Source: a virus (taxonomy: Duplodnaviria > Heunggongvirae > Uroviricota > Caudoviricetes). From it: a DNA stretch of 8,042 nt. The DNA lies in the IMG/VR virus record IMGVR_UViG_2574180019_000005. One strand, 5' to 3'. The notes under the pieces are model-generated. The model worked only from the letters and a program-made list of their open reading frames with translations, had not been told where the DNA came from and ran no database searches. Shown here in pieces: positions 1 to 8,042 of the stretch. Positions within the stretch are counted from its first letter, which is position 1. The number at the start of each line of letters is the position of its first letter. A program made the position numbers and the translations under genes.

Positions 1-177
1 AGGGGAGGCTTTTGGTGTTTTTCCCTGCCGCTCATCACGTAATTGTTTCACCCATCGCGTCATTGTGGAAAGGCCGACATCCATAGCGCTGGCTGCATCT
101 GCCACGGTGTAATTCTGGTCAACGACCAGTTGAGCGGATTCGCGTTTAAACTCTGCGCTGAAATTTCTTTTTTTCAT
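1..177 (-). CDS. IS911-like OrfA (transposase N-terminal HTH protein), partial; runs off window
   Basis: Mirror copy of the right-end orfA; reverse-strand ATG at 175..177. Translation [59 protein letters not shown] matches IS911 OrfA as I recall it. Confidence 0.8.
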
Positions 178-249
178 TATGGCACCTGTGTTGTTCTGAG
201 GTGAGCATATCACCTCTGTTCAGGTGGCCAAATTCAGTAAACCACTTCA
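1..249 (-). mobile_element. IS3-family (IS911-like) insertion sequence, left-end fragment; IS body continues off the window to the left
   Basis: Bases 1..249 are the exact reverse complement of 7793..8041. The element end is TGAAGTGG (reverse strand, terminal base at 249), a TG-initiated IS3-family terminus, and it carries the start of an orfA reading frame. Confidence 0.8.
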
Positions 250-283
250 ATTCACCCCTACAGAGAGCAAAAGAGAAACGCCG

Positions 284-865
284 ATGAACAACTCATGGTG
301 GCAGGAACTAATGCATTTTTTCCTGCAAGGAATGACACTTAAACAGTTGATTCATATGCTAATCATCCTGATCATATTGATTATTGTTATGCCGGTAAGC
401 GTAAAAGAATGGATAAACCTGCATAGTCCAGAAATCCTTCCTCATTACTGGATGTATTACATCCTGTTGTTTTGCGTTAGCTATGTGCTTAACGGCGTTG
501 TTAATTCCGCTTATCACGCTGTGACTGAAAGAATTGAGGTATTCGCTGCTCAGAAGCGCAAATCTAAAGAAGAAAAATATGTGCAAGATTTGTTTGATTC
601 GTTAACTCTTGGAGAAAGAGCGTATTTGGCATTCGCTGTAGCCGCTAATAACCAGCTACAAACGGAAAAGGGCGCTCATGAATCAATTTCATTGCTCAAA
701 AAAGGACTCCTCGTTCGAAGGCCTCCTGCTGTTGGATATCCTGATACCGACCGTTTCGTTATCCCTGAAAGCTATAGACATGAGTGCTACATTAGGTTTG
801 CCGGGAAGGCAGACAGCCTTATGGATGAACTTATCGCTCAGGATAAGCATGGCAAAAACAAGTAA
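284..865 (+). CDS. sieB: Superinfection exclusion protein B-like membrane protein
   Basis: The ORF-track start at 224 lies inside the IS end; the first ATG in phage DNA is 284, giving 193 aa. Two strongly hydrophobic segments (LIHMLIILIILIIVMPV; YWMYYILLFCVSYVLNGVV). It is convergent with N, the position and size of sieB in lambda and P22. Confidence 0.6.
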   Translation: MNNSWWQELMHFFLQGMTLKQLIHMLIILIILIIVMPVSVKEWINLHSPEILPHYWMYYILLFCVSYVLNGVVNSAYHAVTERIEVFAAQKRKSKEEKYVQDLFDSLTLGERAYLAFAVAANNQLQTEKGAHESISLLKKGLLVRRPPAVGYPDTDRFVIPESYRHECYIRFAGKADSLMDELIAQDKHGKNK

Positions 866-881
866 TTAGCAAATGAATTTA

Positions 882-1154
882 TCATCTCGCCGTCAGTTGT
901 TTTGATTTCCGGTAGCCTGCCGCGTAAAGAGCTACGTTCGGAAGACAAGTTGAACCTTCATATTTTCTGGTCAACGTTGTCAGAGTTATCACTTCTGCTC
1001 TCATTGCTGGTTTGAGCTTGCATTGCAAGACCACTCGTGAAGGGGTTGGCCTGTGTAGCTTGTCGGAGCTGATCGCCTCCTGACTTTGCAGATTTGCGCG
1101 ACGAGCTCTACGGCGAGAAGCTGCGGTGCCTTTAAATTCTGTTTTTCTGGACAT
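882..1154 (-). CDS. N: N-family transcription antitermination protein (P22 gene 24-like)
   Basis: Internal ATG at 1154 with GGAGG 5 nt upstream on the reverse strand. N-terminal arginine-rich motif GTAASRRRARRA; C-terminus LPNVALYAAGYRKSKQLTAR resembles the P22 gp24 C-terminus as recalled. Lies between sieB and nutL/pL as in lambdoid phages. Confidence 0.75.
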   Translation of the reverse strand: MSRKTEFKGTAASRRRARRANLQSQEAISSDKLHRPTPSRVVLQCKLKPAMRAEVITLTTLTRKYEGSTCLPNVALYAAGYRKSKQLTAR

Positions 1155-1265
1155 GGATTCCTCCCGAATAAACTTTGGCGATGCAATCTCGAAGCTCCTC
1201 CTGAGACGGTTGCTTCGGCATTGCATCCCACAGCTTATGTGGTTGGGTGATCTGGCTTTTCAGCC

Positions 1266-1297
1266 ACGTAGTCGAGAGTCGACGTTGTTTAAAGAGC
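1266..1297 (-). promoter_or_regulatory. Candidate nutL (boxA GCTCTTTAAACAA plus boxB-like hairpin GTCGA-CTC-TCGAC)
   Basis: Reverse strand reads GCTCTTTAAACAACGTCGACTCTCGACTACGT. BoxA matches the lambdoid consensus (CGCTCTTA-like). A perfect 5-bp-stem hairpin follows. It sits about 110 nt upstream of N, downstream of the putative pL. Confidence 0.45.
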
Positions 1298-1343
1298 CTG
1301 CCAGTCTGTTCCATTTGGCTTCCAGCGTCCTGCTGACGGTTAA

Positions 1344-1386
1344 ATAGTACGATATGTACTTTACAAGATCAATACAATTTGTTGTA
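1344..1386 (-). promoter_or_regulatory. Candidate pL promoter with overlapping OL operators
   Basis: On the reverse strand: -35 TTGATC (1367..1372), 17-bp spacer, -10 TACTAT (1344..1349). Perfect palindrome AGTACGATATGTACT (1346..1360) overlaps the spacer and -10. A second palindrome TACAA-TTTG-TTGTA lies at 1373..1386. The 11-mer AAAGTACATAT (promoter-relative) is shared with the pR region. Confidence 0.4.
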
Positions 1387-1558
1387 AGTTGGCGTGGTTT
1401 TTTATAACGCTTTGTATTTAATAGTGTTGTTTTTTAGCGTGGATGTATTGCCTCGGCGATGTAAGGAGAGATCAGAATTGCGTGGTTTAGTGGGTTGCAT
1501 CTATTTATTTTTCAATAAATATAATTGGTTATGTGTTTTTAGGTGGGCGAACGTGAGG

Positions 1559-1587
1559 CAAAGAAAACCCGGCGCTGAGGCCGGGTT
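1559..1587 (-). terminator. Intrinsic terminator ending the leftward cI operon
   Basis: Directly after the stop of the 250-aa gene: 6-bp GC stem CCCGGC/GCCGGG (1568..1573 / 1580..1585) with a 6-nt loop, followed on the reverse strand by UUUUCUU (1561..1567). Confidence 0.6.
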
Positions 1588-1590
1588 GTA

Positions 1591-2343
1591 TTATGCTGCA
1601 AGTCTCTTAACCCAAGTCTCTCTTTTGGAGAATGGTAGAACTTGGCTTGATTCATGGAAGAGTAAGGAGAGTTGTTGCATTTGATCACCAATTGCTTCGC
1701 TGTCTATAACAACAAATCTGTTGTTATACTCCTCACTTGAAGCTTTAAGATCAATTAGTTTCCCAAGCAATGAGTAAGCACTATTCCAGCTTCCTCCGTG
1801 TTTCACGCTTGATGTAAAAACGTATTTAGGTATGTCGGTTTTTATTGTTACAGGGACGGTAATTTGATGTCCACTCAAGCCATATACGTTTTCACGAAGA
1901 GAAAGTGCGTCTCTAAGCTCTGTGTGATATAGATAATCAATAACCATACTTTCAAACTTTTCAGCTTGAACTGGCTGATACCAGTCTAACGACAAAGTTG
2001 ATGCGAGTATACCAGCTCTAATTATGTTCGATGTAATCGCACCGACATCCTTTTCTGTTGCCCAAGCAATGATTTCTCCTCGAGCATTGAGTTCTGCGCC
2101 TTCTTTAAGCAGTAATTGTCGTATCTCATCAAGTCGTTTTTTGGTAAGCGAGATCCCTCTTGCCTCCATATTCATTAAGGCATCGCATCTGTCACTAACT
2201 AAATACCTACCATTGACTTCACGGATAAAGGCACCGACATGCTCTCCATCATCACAGTAAGTGAATGGACTGATAATTCTCAAGGTCTTGCCTATTGGAT
2301 GGCATTCGAAACCTAGTTGTGAGATCACTGTTGAGCACATCAT
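1591..2343 (-). CDS. Hypothetical protein (250 aa), distal gene of the cassette at the rex position; candidate defence or exclusion component
   Basis: Long ORF on the same strand as cI. Its ATG (2341..2343) overlaps the stop of the upstream gene in an ATGA arrangement. Followed by a terminator. I recognise no motifs. Confidence 0.75.
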   Translation of the reverse strand: MMCSTVISQLGFECHPIGKTLRIISPFTYCDDGEHVGAFIREVNGRYLVSDRCDALMNMEARGISLTKKRLDEIRQLLLKEGAELNARGEIIAWATEKDVGAITSNIIRAGILASTLSLDWYQPVQAEKFESMVIDYLYHTELRDALSLRENVYGLSGHQITVPVTIKTDIPKYVFTSSVKHGGSWNSAYSLLGKLIDLKASSEEYNNRFVVIDSEAIGDQMQQLSLLFHESSQVLPFSKRETWVKRLAA

Positions 2344-2897
2344 ATTCCAAACCCCATTTGCCCCGACTCATCTTCAAGCGGTAAAGGTATTCTCCCAGAG
2401 TAAGTTATGTTCAGATGTTTACAGAAGTAATTCCAATACCCTACCAGGTCATCTGGGTTTATGTCATCTTCGATTGGAAACGCTATTCTATCACTATAGT
2501 ATCCAGCTTCTTCATAGTATACATGGTAGTGAGCACCGTAAATGATATCTTGGTACTTCGGATGATCGACCTTGTAACTATTCGTGTGTTTGTCAAAGTG
2601 ATAGGTATCTACCGCGAAAACCCTCTTGTTATGATAGAAAGCAATAATATTTATTTTAGGGTAAGAAATCGGGTCATCAGGTTCTGAATCCTGATCTGGT
2701 TTCCATTTCAGTTCAAACTTTAGCCCTTGTATAGGTATACAATCCTCATCCAAGGGGATGATATGGGCTTGTAGCCACATATCAGAGCGACTTGGTTTCT
2801 GTTTCCATTTAACGCCAGAAAAGTTAACTATTTTTTTACAATAAAGTACTTTATCAACTTCTACTTGGCTTGGCTGATAATCATCTATTTTTGCCAA
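2340..2897 (-). CDS. Hypothetical protein (185 aa), proximal gene of the cassette at the rex position; candidate defence or exclusion component
   Basis: ORF begins 40 bp downstream of the cI stop. The first in-frame start is TTG (2895..2897), just after an in-frame TAA; the next ATG is at codon 40. Protein is rich in Asp/Glu/Tyr/His (for example HFDKHTNSYKVDHPKYQDIIYGAHYHVYYEE). Very AT-rich DNA. Confidence 0.7.
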   Translation of the reverse strand: MAKIDDYQPSQVEVDKVLYCKKIVNFSGVKWKQKPSRSDMWLQAHIIPLDEDCIPIQGLKFELKWKPDQDSEPDDPISYPKINIIAFYHNKRVFAVDTYHFDKHTNSYKVDHPKYQDIIYGAHYHVYYEEAGYYSDRIAFPIEDDINPDDLVGYWNYFCKHLNITYSGRIPLPLEDESGQMGFGI

Positions 2898-2936
2898 TGT
2901 TTACCGCCCTGTAAATTGTAGATAAAAGTGGTTTCA

Positions 2937-3596
2937 TCACCCAAACGTCTCTTCAGGCCATTGGCTGGCGATAACTTTCCCCACAACGGAACAACTCTCA
3001 TTGCATGGGATCATTGGGTATTGTGGGTTTAGTGGCTGTAGAAACACCTGACCGCTATCCCTGATCAGTTTCTTGAAGGTAAATTCATCACCACCAAGTC
3101 TGGCTATGCAGAAATCGCCGGGCTCAACAGCTTGCTCAGGGTCAACCAGAATTAACATCCCGTCAGGAAAGCTGGGTTTGGAACCTGTTGGTGCGGTCAT
3201 TGAGTTACCTTCAACCTCAAGCCAGAATGCAGAGTCACTGGCTTTTTTGGTTGTGCTTACCAATCTCTCCGCATCGCCTTTGGTAAAGGTTCTGAGTTCT
3301 GGAGAGAACATCCCAGCCTGAACATGAGAAAAAACAGGGTACTCATATTGTTTTTTAACTGGGGCCGATGAGTATTCGCCAACAGGTGAAAATGTCCCGT
3401 CGTGGTTGAATGATATGTTATCAATACCAAGGTATTTAAACACCACACCAATATCACTAAGAGATGGATGACGAGATCCGCGCAACCAGTGTCCAATCCC
3501 ACCCTGCGTCATACCTAGCTCTTCGGCTAACTTCTCTTGAGTTATGCCGAGCTCTTTCATTCTGGATCTAGCCAGTTCATACCATTTCATTTTCAT
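2937..3596 (-). CDS. cI: Phage repressor cI (LexA/S24 family) with a lambda-type C-terminal domain and a non-lambda N-terminal HTH domain
   Basis: From [20 protein letters not shown] to the C-terminus QWPEETFG the protein matches lambda cI as recalled, including the Ala-Gly autocleavage site (VQAGMF) and the S24 domain. The N-terminal HTH ([23 protein letters not shown]) is different. Start is ambiguous (ATG at 3596 or 3590; the ORF track uses TTG at 3638). Confidence 0.9.
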
Positions 3597-3707
3597 GTCC
3601 TTATTATTACGCTCTGTACTGGAACCATCCATGCACAATGTGTATTTTTACTTGTATTCGCAAAGTACATATTGTATTTTTTTATTCGTGTTTACTATGG
3701 AGGGCAT
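3597..3707. promoter_or_regulatory. OR operator region with candidate pR (and divergent pRM)
   Basis: Candidate pR: -35 TTGTAT (3652..3657), 17-bp spacer, -10 TATTTT (3675..3680), GGAGG 4 nt before the cro ATG. AAAGTACATAT (3662..3672) ends 2 bp before the -10, the same spacing as in the pL candidate. TGTATT occurs three times (3641, 3653, 3673). Confidence 0.45.
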
Positions 3708-3923
3708 ATGAGCAACCTACGAAAATATCGAGAGTCACTGAATATCTCTCAAACAACACTTGCTAAGGCAGTTGGATGCACACAGGGAGCTATCGGACAT
3801 TGGGAATCTGGTCGTCGCTTCCCAGACCTTAAAACATGCCGTGCTCTTGTTGCGTGCCTAAACAAGTTAGGCGCAAAAGTCAGTCTTGATGACGTGTTCC
3901 CGCCGGAACACAAAGCCGCTTAA
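3708..3923 (+). CDS. cro: Cro-like HTH (XRE-family) repressor
   Basis: 71 aa, HTH TQTTLAKAVGCTQGAIGHWESG. Divergent from cI across the operator region with a GGAGG ribosome-binding site. The ORF-track start at 3537 would overlap cI and OR, so I take ATG 3708. Confidence 0.8.
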   Translation: MSNLRKYRESLNISQTTLAKAVGCTQGAIGHWESGRRFPDLKTCRALVACLNKLGAKVSLDDVFPPEHKAA

Positions 3924-3933
3924 TAAGCGGATC

Positions 3934-3966
3934 CGCTCTTTGTAACAACGGACATTCGTCCTACGT
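3934..3966 (+). promoter_or_regulatory. Candidate nutR (boxA CGCTCTTTGTAACAA plus boxB-like hairpin GGAC-ATTC-GTCC)
   Basis: Located just after the cro stop. BoxA and the flanks ACAACG ... CTACGT match the nutL candidate, while the hairpin stem sequence differs. Confidence 0.5.
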
Positions 3967-4064
3967 CGCTGAAAAGCGAGTTCCAAGATATCTGACCAAC
4001 TAAGGCCATATGCGTTTCCACGCATACCTTTCAACTAACTATTCACTATTGGAAATCTTAAGAA

Positions 4065-4361
4065 ATGGAAAGAACAAGTTACAGCAAACTATCACAGCGT
4101 GACGTTGATCGCGCAGAAACAGATTTACTTATCAATCTGTCAGCTATTACCCAGCGCGGTCTGGCAAAGATGATTGGCTGTCATGAATCGAAGATAAGCA
4201 GAACGGACTGGAGATTTATTGCTTCGGTCTTGTGTGCTTTCGGAATGGCATCAGACATCAGTCCGATTAGCAGGGCTTTTAAGTATGCGCTTGATGGACT
4301 CACCAATAAAAAACGCCCGGCGGCAACCGAGCGTTCTGAACAAATCCAGATGGAATTCTGA
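4065..4361 (+). CDS. cII: Transcriptional activator cII (hybrid: lambda-type C-terminus, divergent N-terminal and DNA-binding part)
   Basis: C-terminal LTNKKRPAATERSEQIQMEF matches lambda cII as recalled; the N-terminal two-thirds differ. Position between cro/nutR and O. Confidence 0.85.
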   Translation: MERTSYSKLSQRDVDRAETDLLINLSAITQRGLAKMIGCHESKISRTDWRFIASVLCAFGMASDISPISRAFKYALDGLTNKKRPAATERSEQIQMEF

Positions 4362-4382
4362 GGTCATTACTGGATCAATCCA
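4305..4382 (-). ncRNA. oop: OOP antisense RNA (with terminator to), overlapping the cII 3' end
   Basis: Plus-strand sequence AATAAAAAACGCCCGGCGGCAACCGAGCGTTCTGAACAAATCCAGATGGAATTCTGAGGTCATTACTGGATC is the reverse complement of lambda oop RNA as I recall it, with a few substitutions. The GC hairpin plus U-tract lies at the 3' end (about 4305..4330). Confidence 0.7.
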
Positions 4383-4393
4383 CAGGAGTCATT

Positions 4394-5293
4394 ATGACAA
4401 ATACAGCAAAAATACTCAACTTCTGCAGAGGTAACTTTGCCAAACAGGAGCGTAATGTGGCAGATCTCGATGATGGTTACGCCAGACTATCAAATATGCT
4501 GCTTGAGGCTTATTCAGGCGCAGATCTGACCAAGCGACAGTTTAAAGTGCTGCTTGCCATTCTGCGTAAAACCTATGGATGGAATAAACCAATGGACAGA
4601 ATCACCGATTCTCAACTTAGCGAGATTACAAAGTTACCCGTCAAACGGTGCAATGAAGCCAAGTTAGAACTCGTCAGAATGAATATTATCAAGCAGCAAG
4701 GCGGCATGTTTGGACCAAATAAAAACATCTCAGAATGGTGTATCCCTCAAAACGAGGGAAAATCCCCTAAAACGAGGGATAAAACATCCCTCAAATTGGG
4801 GGATTGCTATCCCTCAAAACAGGGGGACACAAAAGACACTATTACAAAAGAAAAAAGAAAAGATTATTCGTCAGAGAATTCTGGCGAATCCTCTGACCAG
4901 CCAGAAAACGACCTTTCTGTGGTGAAACCGGATGCTGCAATTCAGAGCGGCAGCAAGTGGGGGACAGCAGAAGACCTGACCGCCGCAGAATGGATGTTTG
5001 ACATGGTGAAGACCATCGCGCCATCAGCCAGAAAACCGAATTTTGCAGGGTGGGCTAACGATATCCGCCTGATGCGTGAACGTGACGGACGTAACCATCG
5101 CGACATGTGTGTACTGTTCCGCTGGGCATGCCAGGACAACTTCTGGTCCGGTAACGTGCTGAGCCCGGCCAAACTCCGCGACAAGTGGACCCAGCTCGAA
5201 ATCAACCGTAACAAGCAACAGGCAGGTGTGACAGCCTGCAAACCAAAACTCGACCTGACAAACACTGACTGGATTTACGGGGTGGATTTATGA
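4394..5293 (+). CDS. O: Replication initiation protein O (lambda type)
   Basis: 299 aa, MTNTAKILNF...DWIYGVDL, essentially lambda O as recalled. Contains the ori iterons. Stop overlaps the P start (ATGA). Confidence 0.95.
   Translation: MTNTAKILNFCRGNFAKQERNVADLDDGYARLSNMLLEAYSGADLTKRQFKVLLAILRKTYGWNKPMDRITDSQLSEITKLPVKRCNEAKLELVRMNIIKQQGGMFGPNKNISEWCIPQNEGKSPKTRDKTSLKLGDCYPSKQGDTKDTITKEKRKDYSSENSGESSDQPENDLSVVKPDAAIQSGSKWGTAEDLTAAEWMFDMVKTIAPSARKPNFAGWANDIRLMRERDGRNHRDMCVLFRWACQDNFWSGNVLSPAKLRDKWTQLEINRNKQQAGVTACKPKLDLTNTDWIYGVDL
4742..4870. repeat. ori-lambda: four O-binding iterons followed by an AT-rich unwinding region
   Basis: Iterons ATCCCTCAAAACGAGGGAA (4742), AATCCCCTAAAACGAGGGAT (4761), ATCCCTCAAATTGGGGGAT (4786), ATCCCTCAAAACAGGGGGA (4809), then the A-rich stretch AAAAGACACTATTACAAAAGAAAAAAGAAAAGATTATT. 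Confidence 0.9.
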
Positions 5294-5991
5294 AAAACAT
5301 CGCCGCACAGATGGTTAATTTTGACCGTGAGCAGATGCGTCGGATCGCCAACAACATGCCGGAACAGTACGACGAAAAGCCGCAGGTACAGCAGGTAGCG
5401 CAGATCATCAACGGTGTGTTCAGCCAGTTACTGGCAACTTTCCCGGCGAGTCTGGCTAACCGTGACCAGAACGAACTGAACGAAATCCGCCGCCAGTGGG
5501 TTCTGGCTTTCCGGGAAAACGGGATCACCACAATGGAACAGGTTAACGCAGGAATGCGCGTAGCCCGTCGGCAGAATCGACCATTTCTGCCATCACCCGG
5601 GCAGTTTGTTGCATGGTGCCGGGAAGAAGCATCCGTTATCGCCGGACTGCCAAACGTCAGCGAGCTGGTTGATATGGTTTACGAGTATTGCCGGAAGCGA
5701 GGCCTGTATCCGGATGCAGAGTCTTATCCGTGGAAATCGAACGCGCACTACTGGCTGGTTACCAACCTGTACCAGAACATGCGGGCCAATGCGCTGACTG
5801 ACGCGGAATTACGACGCAAGGCTGCCGATGAACTGACCTGTATGACAGCGCGAATTAACCGTGGTGAGACGATACCTGAACCAGTAAAACAACTTCCTGT
5901 CATGGGCGGCAGACCTCTAAATCGTGTTCAGGCGCTGGCGAAGATCGCAGAAATTAAAGCTAAGTTAGGACTGAAAGGAGCAAGTGTATGA
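5290..5991 (+). CDS. P: Replication protein P (DnaB helicase loader, lambda type)
   Basis: 233 aa, MKNIAAQMVNFDREQMRRIANNMPEQYDEKPQ..., matches lambda P as recalled. Translationally coupled to O and ren. Confidence 0.95.
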   Translation: MKNIAAQMVNFDREQMRRIANNMPEQYDEKPQVQQVAQIINGVFSQLLATFPASLANRDQNELNEIRRQWVLAFRENGITTMEQVNAGMRVARRQNRPFLPSPGQFVAWCREEASVIAGLPNVSELVDMVYEYCRKRGLYPDAESYPWKSNAHYWLVTNLYQNMRANALTDAELRRKAADELTCMTARINRGETIPEPVKQLPVMGGRPLNRVQALAKIAEIKAKLGLKGASV

Positions 5992-6278
5992 CGGGCAAAG
6001 AGGCAATTATTCATTACCTGGGGACGCATAATAGCTTCTGTGCGCCGGACGTTGCCGCGCTAACAGGCGCAACAGTAACCAGCATAAATCAGGCCGCGGC
6101 TAAAATGGCACGGGCAGGTCTTCTGGTTATCGAAGGTAAGGTCTGGCGAACGGTGTATTACCGGTTTGCTACCAAGGAAGAACGGGAAGGAAAGATGAGC
6201 ACGAACCTGATTTTTAAGGAGTGTCGCCAGAGTGCCACGATGAAACGGATATTGGCGGTATATGGAGTTAAAAGATGA
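5988..6278 (+). CDS. ren: Ren protein (lambda type)
   Basis: 96 aa, MTGKEAIIHYLGTHNSFCAPDVAALTGATVTSINQAAAKMARAG..., matches lambda Ren as recalled. Start overlaps the P stop. Confidence 0.85.
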   Translation: MTGKEAIIHYLGTHNSFCAPDVAALTGATVTSINQAAAKMARAGLLVIEGKVWRTVYYRFATKEEREGKMSTNLIFKECRQSATMKRILAVYGVKR

Positions 6279-6303
6279 CCATCTACATCACTGAGCTAAT
6301 AAC

Positions 6304-6335
6304 AGGCCTGCAGGTAATCGCAGGCCTTTTTATTT
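6304..6335 (+). terminator. Intrinsic terminator between ren and ninB (tR2-like)
   Basis: 8-bp stem AGGCCTGC/GCAGGCCT (6304..6311 / 6320..6327), 8-nt loop, followed by TTTTTATTT. Confidence 0.7.
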
Positions 6336-6351
6336 GGGGGAGAGGGAAGTC

Positions 6352-6792
6352 ATGAAAAAACTAACCTTTGAAATTCGATCTCCGGCACATCAGCAAAACG
6401 CTATTCACGCAGTACAGCAAATCCTTCCAGACCCAACCAAACCAATCGTAGTAACCATTCAGGAACGCAACCGCAGCTTAGACCAAAACAGGAAGCTATG
6501 GGCCTGCTTAGGTGACGTCTCTCGTCAGGTTGAATGGCATGGTCGCTGGCTGGATGCAGAAAGCTGGAAGTGTGTGTTTACCGCAGCATTAAAGCAGCAG
6601 GATGTTGTTCCTAACCTTGCCGGGAATGGCTTTGTGGTAATAGGCCAGTCAACCAGCAGGATGCGTGTAAGCGAATTTGCGGAGCTATTAGAGCTTATAC
6701 AGGCATTCGGTACAGAGCGTGGCGTTAAGTGGTCAGACGAAGCGCGACTGGCTCTCGAATGGAAAGCGCGATGGGGAGATCGGGCTGCATGA
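6352..6792 (+). CDS. ninB: NinB (Orf) recombination mediator protein
   Basis: 146 aa, MKKLTFEIRSPAHQQNAIHAVQQILPDPTKPIVVTIQERNRSLDQNRKLWACLGD..., matches lambda NinB as recalled. Ribosome-binding site GAGGGAAG upstream of ATG 6352. Confidence 0.9.
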   Translation: MKKLTFEIRSPAHQQNAIHAVQQILPDPTKPIVVTIQERNRSLDQNRKLWACLGDVSRQVEWHGRWLDAESWKCVFTAALKQQDVVPNLAGNGFVVIGQSTSRMRVSEFAELLELIQAFGTERGVKWSDEARLALEWKARWGDRAA

Positions 6793-7316
6793 CTATCAAA
6801 TCAAATACGCCAGCACACGACAAGGACTGCTGGCAAACGCCGCTTTGGCTTTTTGATGCACTGGATATTGAGTTTGGATTCTGGCTGGATTCGGCAGCGA
6901 GCGACAAAAATGCTCTGTGCGCTCACTGGCTAACTGAGGACGACGACGCGCTCAATTCTGAGTGGGTAAGCCACGGTGCAATCTGGAATAACCCACCGTA
7001 CAGCAATATCAGGCCGTGGGTGGAAAAAGCCGCTGAGCAGTGTATACAACAGCGACAGACGGTAGTGATGCTTGTGCCAGAGGATATGTCTGTCGGATGG
7101 TTCAGCAAGGCTCTGGAGAGTGTTGACGAAGTTCGTATTATCACTGATGGACGGATTAATTTTATCGAACCATCGACAGGGCTGGAGAAGAAGGGAAACA
7201 GCAAAGGCTCCATGCTGCTGATTTGGCGACCGTTCATCAGTCCTCGACGGATGTTTACTACCGTATCCAAAGCGGCATTGATGGCGATCGGGCAGGGCGT
7301 CAGGAGGGCTGCATGA
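6789..7316 (+). CDS. Phage-type DNA N6-adenine methyltransferase
   Basis: 175 aa. Catalytic motif IV NPPY (WNNPPYSN), typical of amino-methyltransferases. ATG overlaps the ninB stop and the stop overlaps the ninE start. Sits where lambdoid prophages carry the small phage Dam-type methylase. Confidence 0.8.
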
Positions 7317-7489
7317 GACGACAGCGACGAAGCATCACCGACATAATCTGCGAAAACTGCAAATACCTTCCAACGAAACGCTCCAGAAATAAACGCAAGC
7401 TAATCCCAAAAGAATCTGACGTAAAAACCTTCAATTACACAGCCCACCTGTGGGATATCCGGTGGCTAAGATATCGTGCGAGGAAATGA
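7313..7489 (+). CDS. ninE: NinE protein
   Basis: 58 aa, [58 protein letters not shown], near-identical to lambda NinE as recalled. Confidence 0.85.
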
Positions 7490-7491
7490 CA

Positions 7492-7896
7492 ATGGATTAT
7501 TCACAGTTAAGTGATTTTGAAATTAACAGAATGGTAGGAGACATAATTTTTAAAGGCCTTTGGGCAAGTAAACCGGAAACATCAGGGAATAACACCAACA
7601 AATGGTATTACGGAAATGCTGATACAACTTTTGAGCCATTAAATCATTTGCCTGACTACTGCAATGATCCGAGCGCTTCATGGCCGATTATTGAGAAATA
7701 CAGGATTTCTATCTTAGACCAGTTAACTGAATGGTGTGTGGATGCAAAAGGCGTAAGCCCAATATTTGATACCAGACCTCTCCGCGCCGCCATGAAGTGG
7801 TTTACTGAATTTGGCCACCTGAACAGAGGTGATATGCTCACCTCAGAACAACACAGGTGCCATAATGAAAAAAAGAAATTTCAGCGCAGAGTTTAA
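7492..7896 (+). pseudogene. nin-region ORF of unknown function, interrupted by IS insertion at 7792/7793 (native part 7492..7792, tail read from IS DNA)
   Basis: ATG 7492 with GAGGA 7 nt upstream. The reading frame continues across the IS terminus TGAAGTGG at 7793, so the last 34 codons are IS-derived. Confidence 0.5.
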
Positions 7897-8042
7897 ACGC
7901 GAATCCGCTCAACTGGTCGTTGACCAGAATTACACCGTGGCAGATGCAGCCAGCGCTATGGATGTCGGCCTTTCCACAATGACGCGATGGGTGAAACAAT
8001 TACGTGATGAGCGGCAGGGAAAAACACCAAAAGCCTCCCCTA
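7793..8042 (+). mobile_element. IS3-family (IS911-like) insertion sequence, left-end fragment; IS body continues off the window to the right
   Basis: Terminus TGAAGTGGTTTACTGAATTTGGCCACC... followed by the orfA start. 7793..8041 is the exact inverted copy of 1..249. Confidence 0.8.
7865..8042 (+). CDS. IS911-like OrfA (transposase N-terminal HTH protein), partial; runs off window
   Basis: ATG 7865. [59 protein letters not shown]. Confidence 0.8.

Follow-up and report, generated by a model that had tools for sequence, protein, structure and literature searches.

The stretch of DNA analysed here, 8,042 bp in length (IMG/VR record IMGVR_UViG_2574180019_000005; hereafter the window), carries the early region of a lambdoid prophage and is bounded on both sides by inward-facing ends of one IS911-like insertion sequence (IS). 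The overall best explanation, which we consider probable, is that both window ends are contig ends inside a multi-copy IS and that the two junctions mark two separate insertions of this element in an ordinary lambdoid prophage. The apparent perfect inverted repeat would then correspond to unique DNA between two IS copies, with the assembly cut inside each. So read, the biology behind the repeat is ordinary: a known IS911-like element entered a known lambdoid prophage twice, one insertion being inherited and the other private to the host strain, Escherichia coli LAU-EC6. The finding is already-known territory, as IS insertions in prophages and short-read contigs ending in an IS are both routine.

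The inverted repeat coincides with the contig boundaries

A repeat search of the window revealed two arms, 1-249 and 7793-8041, that are 100% complementary over 249 nt and separated by a spacer of 7,543 nt, a perfect match whose length cannot arise by chance. Each arm ends in the IS terminus TGAAGTGG, which is read as CCACTTCA on the left arm at position 249. The phage DNA adjoining the two termini is unrelated, lying upstream of sieB on the left and within ninX on the right. An earlier note on this DNA had described just such a perfect repeat, ending at IS termini and set in unrelated flanks, and its description is borne out at 100% over the 249 nt. Both stubs represent the orfA-proximal end of the element, which carries the left inverted repeat (IRL), and both face inward. 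The left stub is identical to positions 1-249 of the full 1,250-bp copies in E. coli ATCC 25922 and 19AR0253 and gives an HTH_Tnp_1 match (6.5e-10), and the 250-nt right stub (7793-8042) agrees with the full copies at every base of their positions 1-250.

The inverted repeat extends to both ends of the window. Because base 8042 still agrees with position 250 of the full IS, the 249 nt are a lower bound fixed by the window end, not by divergence. The triplet TGA at 7793-7795 is common to native ninX and the IS terminus, so the right junction is placed within 3 nt, assuming a complete IS terminus. A circular module with a single IS joining both its ends was considered and rejected, since both junctions carry IRL and one IS has one IRL only.

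The window is the entire contig AYNF01000040.1 of the LAU-EC6 draft genome (GCA_000506445.2), identical throughout the 8,042 bp. The strain was sequenced from TruSeq libraries of 300-600 bp as MiSeq paired-end 250-bp reads, and the a5 pipeline assembled these into 106 contigs without scaffolding (PMC3931373). The two stubs, at 249 and 250 nt, are thus about one read length. An assembler would be expected to stop where reads anchored in unique DNA run out, approximately one read length into a repeat, and we infer that stub length reflects read length. A contig break at the point where the IS copies diverge is ruled out: the full copies agree with each other and with the stubs well beyond position 250, the exceptions being Ns and indels in one old assembly.

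Among the closest complete genomes, IS-containing queries map to roughly 7-8 places per genome, and a multi-copy IS of such kind is the sort of repeat that breaks short-read assemblies. The technical marks of a contig end are all present, namely a complete contig, both ends inside a multi-copy IS, and stubs of about read length; the length of the arms and their perfect identity are thus products of the contig ends. Because the window is a whole short-read draft contig, 100% identity of the arms is no proof that the two genomic IS copies are identical. The most pertinent remark of the earlier note was accordingly its caveat of an assembly artefact: the record is a complete MiSeq contig, both ends of which reach about one read length into the repeat, the sequence itself being real. 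The window resembles the repeat-bounded contigs of short-read bacterial drafts in consisting of unique DNA that ends on both sides in a multi-copy IS, in its stubs of ~250 nt, and in forming a whole record of a 106-contig MiSeq assembly. We found no difference from such contigs, and the junctions are still informative on the position and orientation of the two IS copies.

The element is an IS911-like member of the IS3 family

Full copies in relatives are 1,250 bp long, running TGAAGTGG to CCACTTCA, and have imperfect terminal inverted repeats with 25/36 positions matching; the end on the side of the right inverted repeat (IRR) reads …GTTGACCACTTCA. TG…CA termini and a length within ~1.2-1.5 kb, as in IS3/IS911-like elements, are found in these full copies, of which the window holds 249 + 250 nt from the IRL side. 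The element encodes an orfA product of 100 aa (HTH_Tnp_1, 6.1e-14) and, in the -1 frame, an orfB product of 272 aa that matches rve (DDE; 1e-31) and the NCBIfam model transpos_IS3 (3.8e-90). The orfA/orfB overlap contains an A AAA AAG (A6G) motif at IS position 324, a putative -1 frameshift site. DNA identity to the two 'IS911A' features of K-12 MG1655 is 98.5% over 335 nt and 95.6% over 429 nt, both features being annotated fragments of the element. Three complete copies in the ATCC 25922 and 19AR0253 loci are surrounded by 3-bp target duplications, ATT, CAT, and CCA.

The NCBI Prokaryotic Genome Annotation Pipeline (PGAP) labels most copies 'IS3-like element ISEc52 family'. The 1,250-bp length, the imperfect TG…CA repeats, the -1 overlap of orfA and orfB with A AAA AAG, and the 3-bp duplications are shared with IS911 and with ISEc52 as named by PGAP, whereas the element is not identical to the IS911 remnants of K-12 and is present in the window as 249-250 nt per copy. 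The label 'IS911-like ends' given by the earlier note is upheld by the two K-12 identities, the IS3-family OrfA/OrfB pair, and the A6G motif. The left IS in an older ATCC 25922 assembly (CP009072.1, positions 7997-9249 of locus L001) shows two Ns as well as clustered indels and substitutions at IS position ~903-927, which are absent from other copies; these anomalies are probably sequencing errors, not true divergence.

The module is a contiguous early region of a known phage type

Window positions 250-7792 show 0 mismatches to the isolated lambdoid phage ev017 (Jouyvirus, NC_049948) and 1 to ev207. PhiR57_1 and PhiR63_2 match the module at 100.0% identity (BLAST), and prophage 3 of E. coli Nissle 1917 is 99.9% identical to it. 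The genes are ordered sieB, N, a two-gene insert in the rexAB slot, cI-like, cro, cII, O, P, ren, ninB, a Dam-type methyltransferase gene, ninE, and ninX. The module is an uninterrupted part of the early region of a functional type of phage; the IS copies do not define it as a unit. The Jouyvirus phages ev017 and ev207 share the whole 7,543-bp module and the order sieB-N-cI-cro-cII-O-P-ren-nin, and differ from the window in being IS-free at both sites, the empty sites reading …aaactctATTcacccc… on the left and …gccgccatgattgtc… on the right. Nissle 1917 prophage 3 has the same gene order and differs in that its left IS lies 11 bp away, its left arm is deleted, and its ninX is intact.

The left copy is inherited and, in relatives, a simple insertion

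Window positions 1-7795 are 100% identical to ATCC 25922-type complete genomes, in which the prophage is whole, with int-xis at icd, exo-bet-gam-kil-cIII-ral on one side of the module, and rusA-Q-lysis-terminase on the other. ATCC 25922 has a complete left IS (L001 7997-9249), which lies between ral and sieB and has its own duplication (…ctctATT-IS-ATTcacccc). The empty left site, …ctctATTcacccc, is present in 19AR0253, ev017, and ev207. Among 5,426 complete E. coli genomes, the left junction is occupied in 33 and the left site is empty in 298. In the ATCC 25922 group the left copy is an independent simple insertion, which LAU-EC6 shares by inheritance, and it is already annotated in dozens of complete genomes.

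The ATCC 25922 type contradicts the proposal that the left copy took the place of the sequence upstream of sieB, since a simple ATT-flanked insertion is accompanied there by the rest of the prophage; the empty sites of the 298 genomes and the two phages speak equally against it. Replacement upstream of sieB does hold in Nissle 1917, at a junction 11 bp away from that of the window. As for the completeness and duplications of the IS copies, which the earlier note had asked about, the left copy is complete with its ATT duplication in the ATCC 25922 type, and the LAU-EC6 copies are cut by the contig ends. We infer that each stub belongs to a complete IS in LAU-EC6.

The right copy is private to LAU-EC6

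The ninX site is intact in 599/5,426 complete genomes, ATCC 25922 and Nissle 1917 included, and its native sequence (…gccgccatgattgtc…) also occurs in ev017 and ev207. Comparison with related genomes for an empty site, as recommended by the earlier note, thus succeeded on both sides. The ninX-IRL junction is found in 0/5,426 complete E. coli genomes and in none of the GTDB species representatives or JGI metagenome contigs. In the window, ninX is broken after codon 100/113, consistent with the earlier observation that the right copy truncates a nin-region gene, and its frame continues into the IS to position 7896, resulting in a 134-aa fusion protein (ETE13740.1 / WP_023908416.1). This fusion has one exact match among ~15 billion proteins, from one contig (LAU-EC6), and its 90% cluster consists of one member; the UniRef name of the protein nevertheless carries 'n=7'. 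The right copy is a later, LAU-EC6-private insertion of the same element in the opposite orientation.

The order of events would be as follows: a Jouyvirus (ev017-like) lambdoid prophage, located at icd in relatives, received the left insertion first and the ninX insertion later, in opposite orientation. If the right copy is a simple insertion, its far end would be followed by the CCA duplication and then by the remaining 13 ninX codons and the prophage, and the sequence expected on the IRR side would read CCAtgattgtctttctcc. The predicted outer junction (IRR, 0-8 nt, then tgattgtctttctcc) has no match in the GTDB representatives or metagenome contigs.

Alternative explanations for the arrangement

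Four other accounts of the window were weighed. It is very unlikely that the right junction is an assembly chimera or stems from a minority subpopulation, with ninX intact in the bulk genome: the junction rests on one short-read assembly and is found nowhere else, but the join lies exactly at the IS terminus TGAAGTGG, which is rare for a random chimera and favours genuine transposition over a chimeric join, and the element is demonstrably active in the same prophage of related strains, at no fewer than five different insertion sites. The probability is slimmer still that the two IS copies form a composite transposon and jointly move the immunity/replication/defence module. The geometry, two copies of one IS around a gene cassette, is what speaks for it. 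Against it, the module is found solely in a normal phage or prophage context (ev017, ev207, PhiR57_1, PhiR63_2, and 227 complete genomes), colinear with flanking phage genes; no plasmid carries >=80% of the module, no other genome has both junctions (0 genomes), and an IS-cargo-IS unit was accordingly found at no other locus or replicon. The outer ends of such a transposon would be two IRR ends, and no event using IRR ends was seen. The duplication seen in the closest relatives belongs to one IS and not to a whole IS-module-IS unit: the left copy alone is flanked by ATT there, which indicates that the two copies came separately. A composite-transposon-like unit mobilising the module, as the earlier note had suggested, therefore finds no support. 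We regard it as equally remote that the LAU-EC6 IS copies and the 7.5 kb act as a functional unit, either as a composite element carrying an immunity, superinfection-exclusion, candidate-defence (PDC-M24-like), and lambda-ori cassette to new replicons or as an IS-excised self-replicating O-P-ori circle. Somewhat less improbable, and still doubtful, is an invertible or inverted segment, in which the 7.5-kb module flips by recombination between the inverted IS copies, or has been flipped by an intramolecular transposition that produced the second copy together with an inversion. Inverted repeats do flank the segment (1-249, 7793-8041), presumably 1,250 bp each and 7.5 kb apart, and inverted repeats of such arrangement are a substrate for RecA-dependent inversion; native and inverted states yield the same four junction sequences, and the contig fits either. 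As a proxy in the same prophage, we used the 3.4-kb exo..ral segment of ATCC 25922, located between two inverted copies of the same IS (L001 3298-4547 and 7997-9249), with a synthetic query sequence that matches the segment in inverted form only. This query hit 0/5,426 genomes; 21 genomes have the native form, among them at least 13 separate assemblies of the ATCC 25922 type, and no recombinase or programmed switch is involved. Inversion is thus possible in principle, though not observed. The earlier note had named, as the pattern that would speak against its proposals, two independent insertions with their own duplications and no sign of inversion or mobilisation. Relatives show such an independent insertion, with a duplication of its own, on the left side, and nothing points to inversion or mobilisation; the duplications of the two insertions in LAU-EC6 lie outside the contig.

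Prophage erosion is the most relevant of the three mechanisms raised by the earlier note, even though we consider it unlikely for LAU-EC6 itself. Here one or both LAU-EC6 IS copies would abut deletions, and the module would be a prophage remnant that keeps immunity, exclusion, and replication genes, with recombination and/or late genes gone. Relatives reveal that the process is real. In Nissle 1917 (CP022686.1, L007 5572-7260), a truncated int directly abuts the IRR end of the IS, the int..ral arm is wholly missing, and there is no duplication; the IRL junction is 11 bp closer to sieB than that of the window (…CTTCA/cagagagc). This loss agrees with prophage 3 of this strain being short (39.8 kb) and non-inducible (PMC5987069). 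In LTC201 (AP029249.1, L009 6701-7990), a laboratory strain otherwise ATCC 25922-like, the IS copy located in the DUF1382 gene abuts, with its IRR, window position 746 within sieB. The resulting 5,198-bp IS-adjacent deletion removes exo, bet, gam, kil, cIII, and ral together with the second IS copy and the 5' portion of sieB. C25 (CP127314.1, L008 800-7249) has a rearranged left flank beside the same IRL-ATT-sieB junction as the window: a unit composed of the IS and 1,345 bp (an Ea22-like fragment, TraR, and a small open reading frame) is present twice in tandem, and the exo..ral genes are missing. On the other side, the ATCC 25922 type, to which positions 1-7795 of the window are 100% identical, has a complete prophage with the left IS as a simple insertion; no LAU-EC6 sequence shows a deletion, and ninX is the sole gene visibly damaged. 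The idea of a scar left by IS-mediated deletions thus holds for Nissle 1917, LTC201, and C25 and comes down to the ninX truncation in LAU-EC6. These same three relatives also count against two simple insertions in an otherwise ordinary prophage, since in this prophage they reveal arrangements of the IS other than a simple insertion. Three further points weigh in the same direction: the tie between stub length and read length depends on how the assembler is taken to behave; IS completeness, the right-hand duplication, and the neighbours of the outer (IRR) ends lie beyond the 8,042 bp of LAU-EC6; and the junction sequences alone fit a native or an inverted orientation of the 7.5-kb segment.

Insertion sites of the element in ev017-type prophages

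Across strains, the same IS occupies at least five different sites in one prophage type, all within ~14 kb: the DUF1382 gene, the interior of sieB, the Ea22-like gene, ninX, and the spacer between ral and sieB, which was hit at two positions 11 bp apart. The IS lies inside sieB in 19AR0253 and OZ547099, and a CCA duplication is read in 19AR0253 (L002 9406-10655). The clustering suggests that the element prefers this region or has hopped locally more than once. The element is thus active in the ev017-type prophage and erodes it. The number of insertion sites, together with the deletions and the tandem duplication in relatives, resembles the IS-driven decay of cryptic lambdoid prophages, from which LAU-EC6 differs in showing one disrupted gene, ninX.

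Genes of the module

The coordinates of the two stubs, the target triplets, and the genes between them are summarised in Table 1.

Table 1. Features of the 8,042-bp window, with coordinates, strand, and supporting evidence
Feature	Position	Strand	Evidence and remarks
Left stub of IS911-like IS3-family element	1..249	-	IRL terminus at 249 (…CCACTTCA); promoter-proximal region; orfA first 59 codons (177..1); ends at contig end
ATT, sieB-side copy of left 3-bp target duplication	250..252	.	ATCC 25922 junctions; empty site in relatives
sieB, superinfection exclusion protein B	284..865	+	Pfam SieB 9.1e-22; PGAP annotation in ATCC 25922 locus
N-type antiterminator	882..1154	-	Pfam N_peptide 1.5e-32
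Two overlapping genes in rexA/rexB slot, between repressor gene and N	1591..2897	-	DUF1828 protein 1591-2343; 185-aa protein 2340-2897
cI-like repressor, helix-turn-helix (HTH) + S24 LexA-type autopeptidase	2937..3632	-	Pfam Peptidase_S24 1.3e-28, HTH_3 2e-10
cro-like HTH regulator	3708..3923	+	PGAP in ATCC 25922 (L001 12708-12923); HTH_3 on called gene
cII-family regulator	4065..4361	+	Phage_CII
Replication gene O	4394-5293	+	Phage_rep_O; four lambda-type ori iterons 4742-4828 (direct-repeat family)
Replication gene P	5290-5991	+	Phage_lambda_P
ren, ninB, Dam-type N6-adenine methyltransferase, ninE	5988..7489	+	Annotations and Pfam; PADLOC orphan methyltransferase 1.6e-19
ninX, cut after codon 100/113 by right IS	7492..7792	+	Pfam Phage_P22_NinX 1.9e-11
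CCA, predicted target triplet of right insertion	7790..7792	.	Predicted from ATT, CAT, and CCA duplications; second copy expected past far IS end, outside contig
Right stub of same IS911-like element	7793..8042	+	IRL terminus at 7793; orfA first 59 codons 7865-8042; ends at contig end

The two genes in the rexA/rexB slot (1591-2897) form a candidate defence pair, as judged from their sequence matches. They match PDC-M24B (4.7e-10) and PDC-M24A (4.8e-4) in PADLOC and DUF1828 (5.3e-8) in Pfam, with DUF6978 below cut-off, and the NCBIfam search of the pair gave no match.

A gene of this region has been studied in Nissle 1917, from which Bury et al. 2018 cloned a 'phage repressor pr' (EcN_1294) that lowers the plating of lambda and stx phages on MG1655 >200-fold. 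The published primers for pr map to window positions 4019 to ~4385 and 4262-4320. As these cloning and quantification primers bracket the cII-family gene and not the cI-like gene, the protective gene pr appears to be a CII homologue.

Two 'plasmid' records of 48,499 bp from unrelated bacteria, NZ_CP104294.1 (Stenotrophomonas maltophilia) and NZ_CP068597.1 (Paenibacillus sonchi), contain rexA, a LexA-family cI-like repressor, and O/P at ~96% to the window. Both are almost exactly as long as phage lambda and have the appearance of control or spike-in lambda DNA that was assembled into a plasmid record.

Implications

The window offers a lesson of method: a perfect inverted repeat at both window ends, with arms of about one read length, is to be read first as a contig boundary. 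For the biology of the prophage, the same IS has hit the ev017-type prophage in ATCC 25922, a strain for quality control, and in the probiotic Nissle 1917, both of them reference strains in wide use. IS-linked deletion and duplication probably explain why prophage 3 of Nissle 1917 is short and non-inducible yet retains immunity functions.

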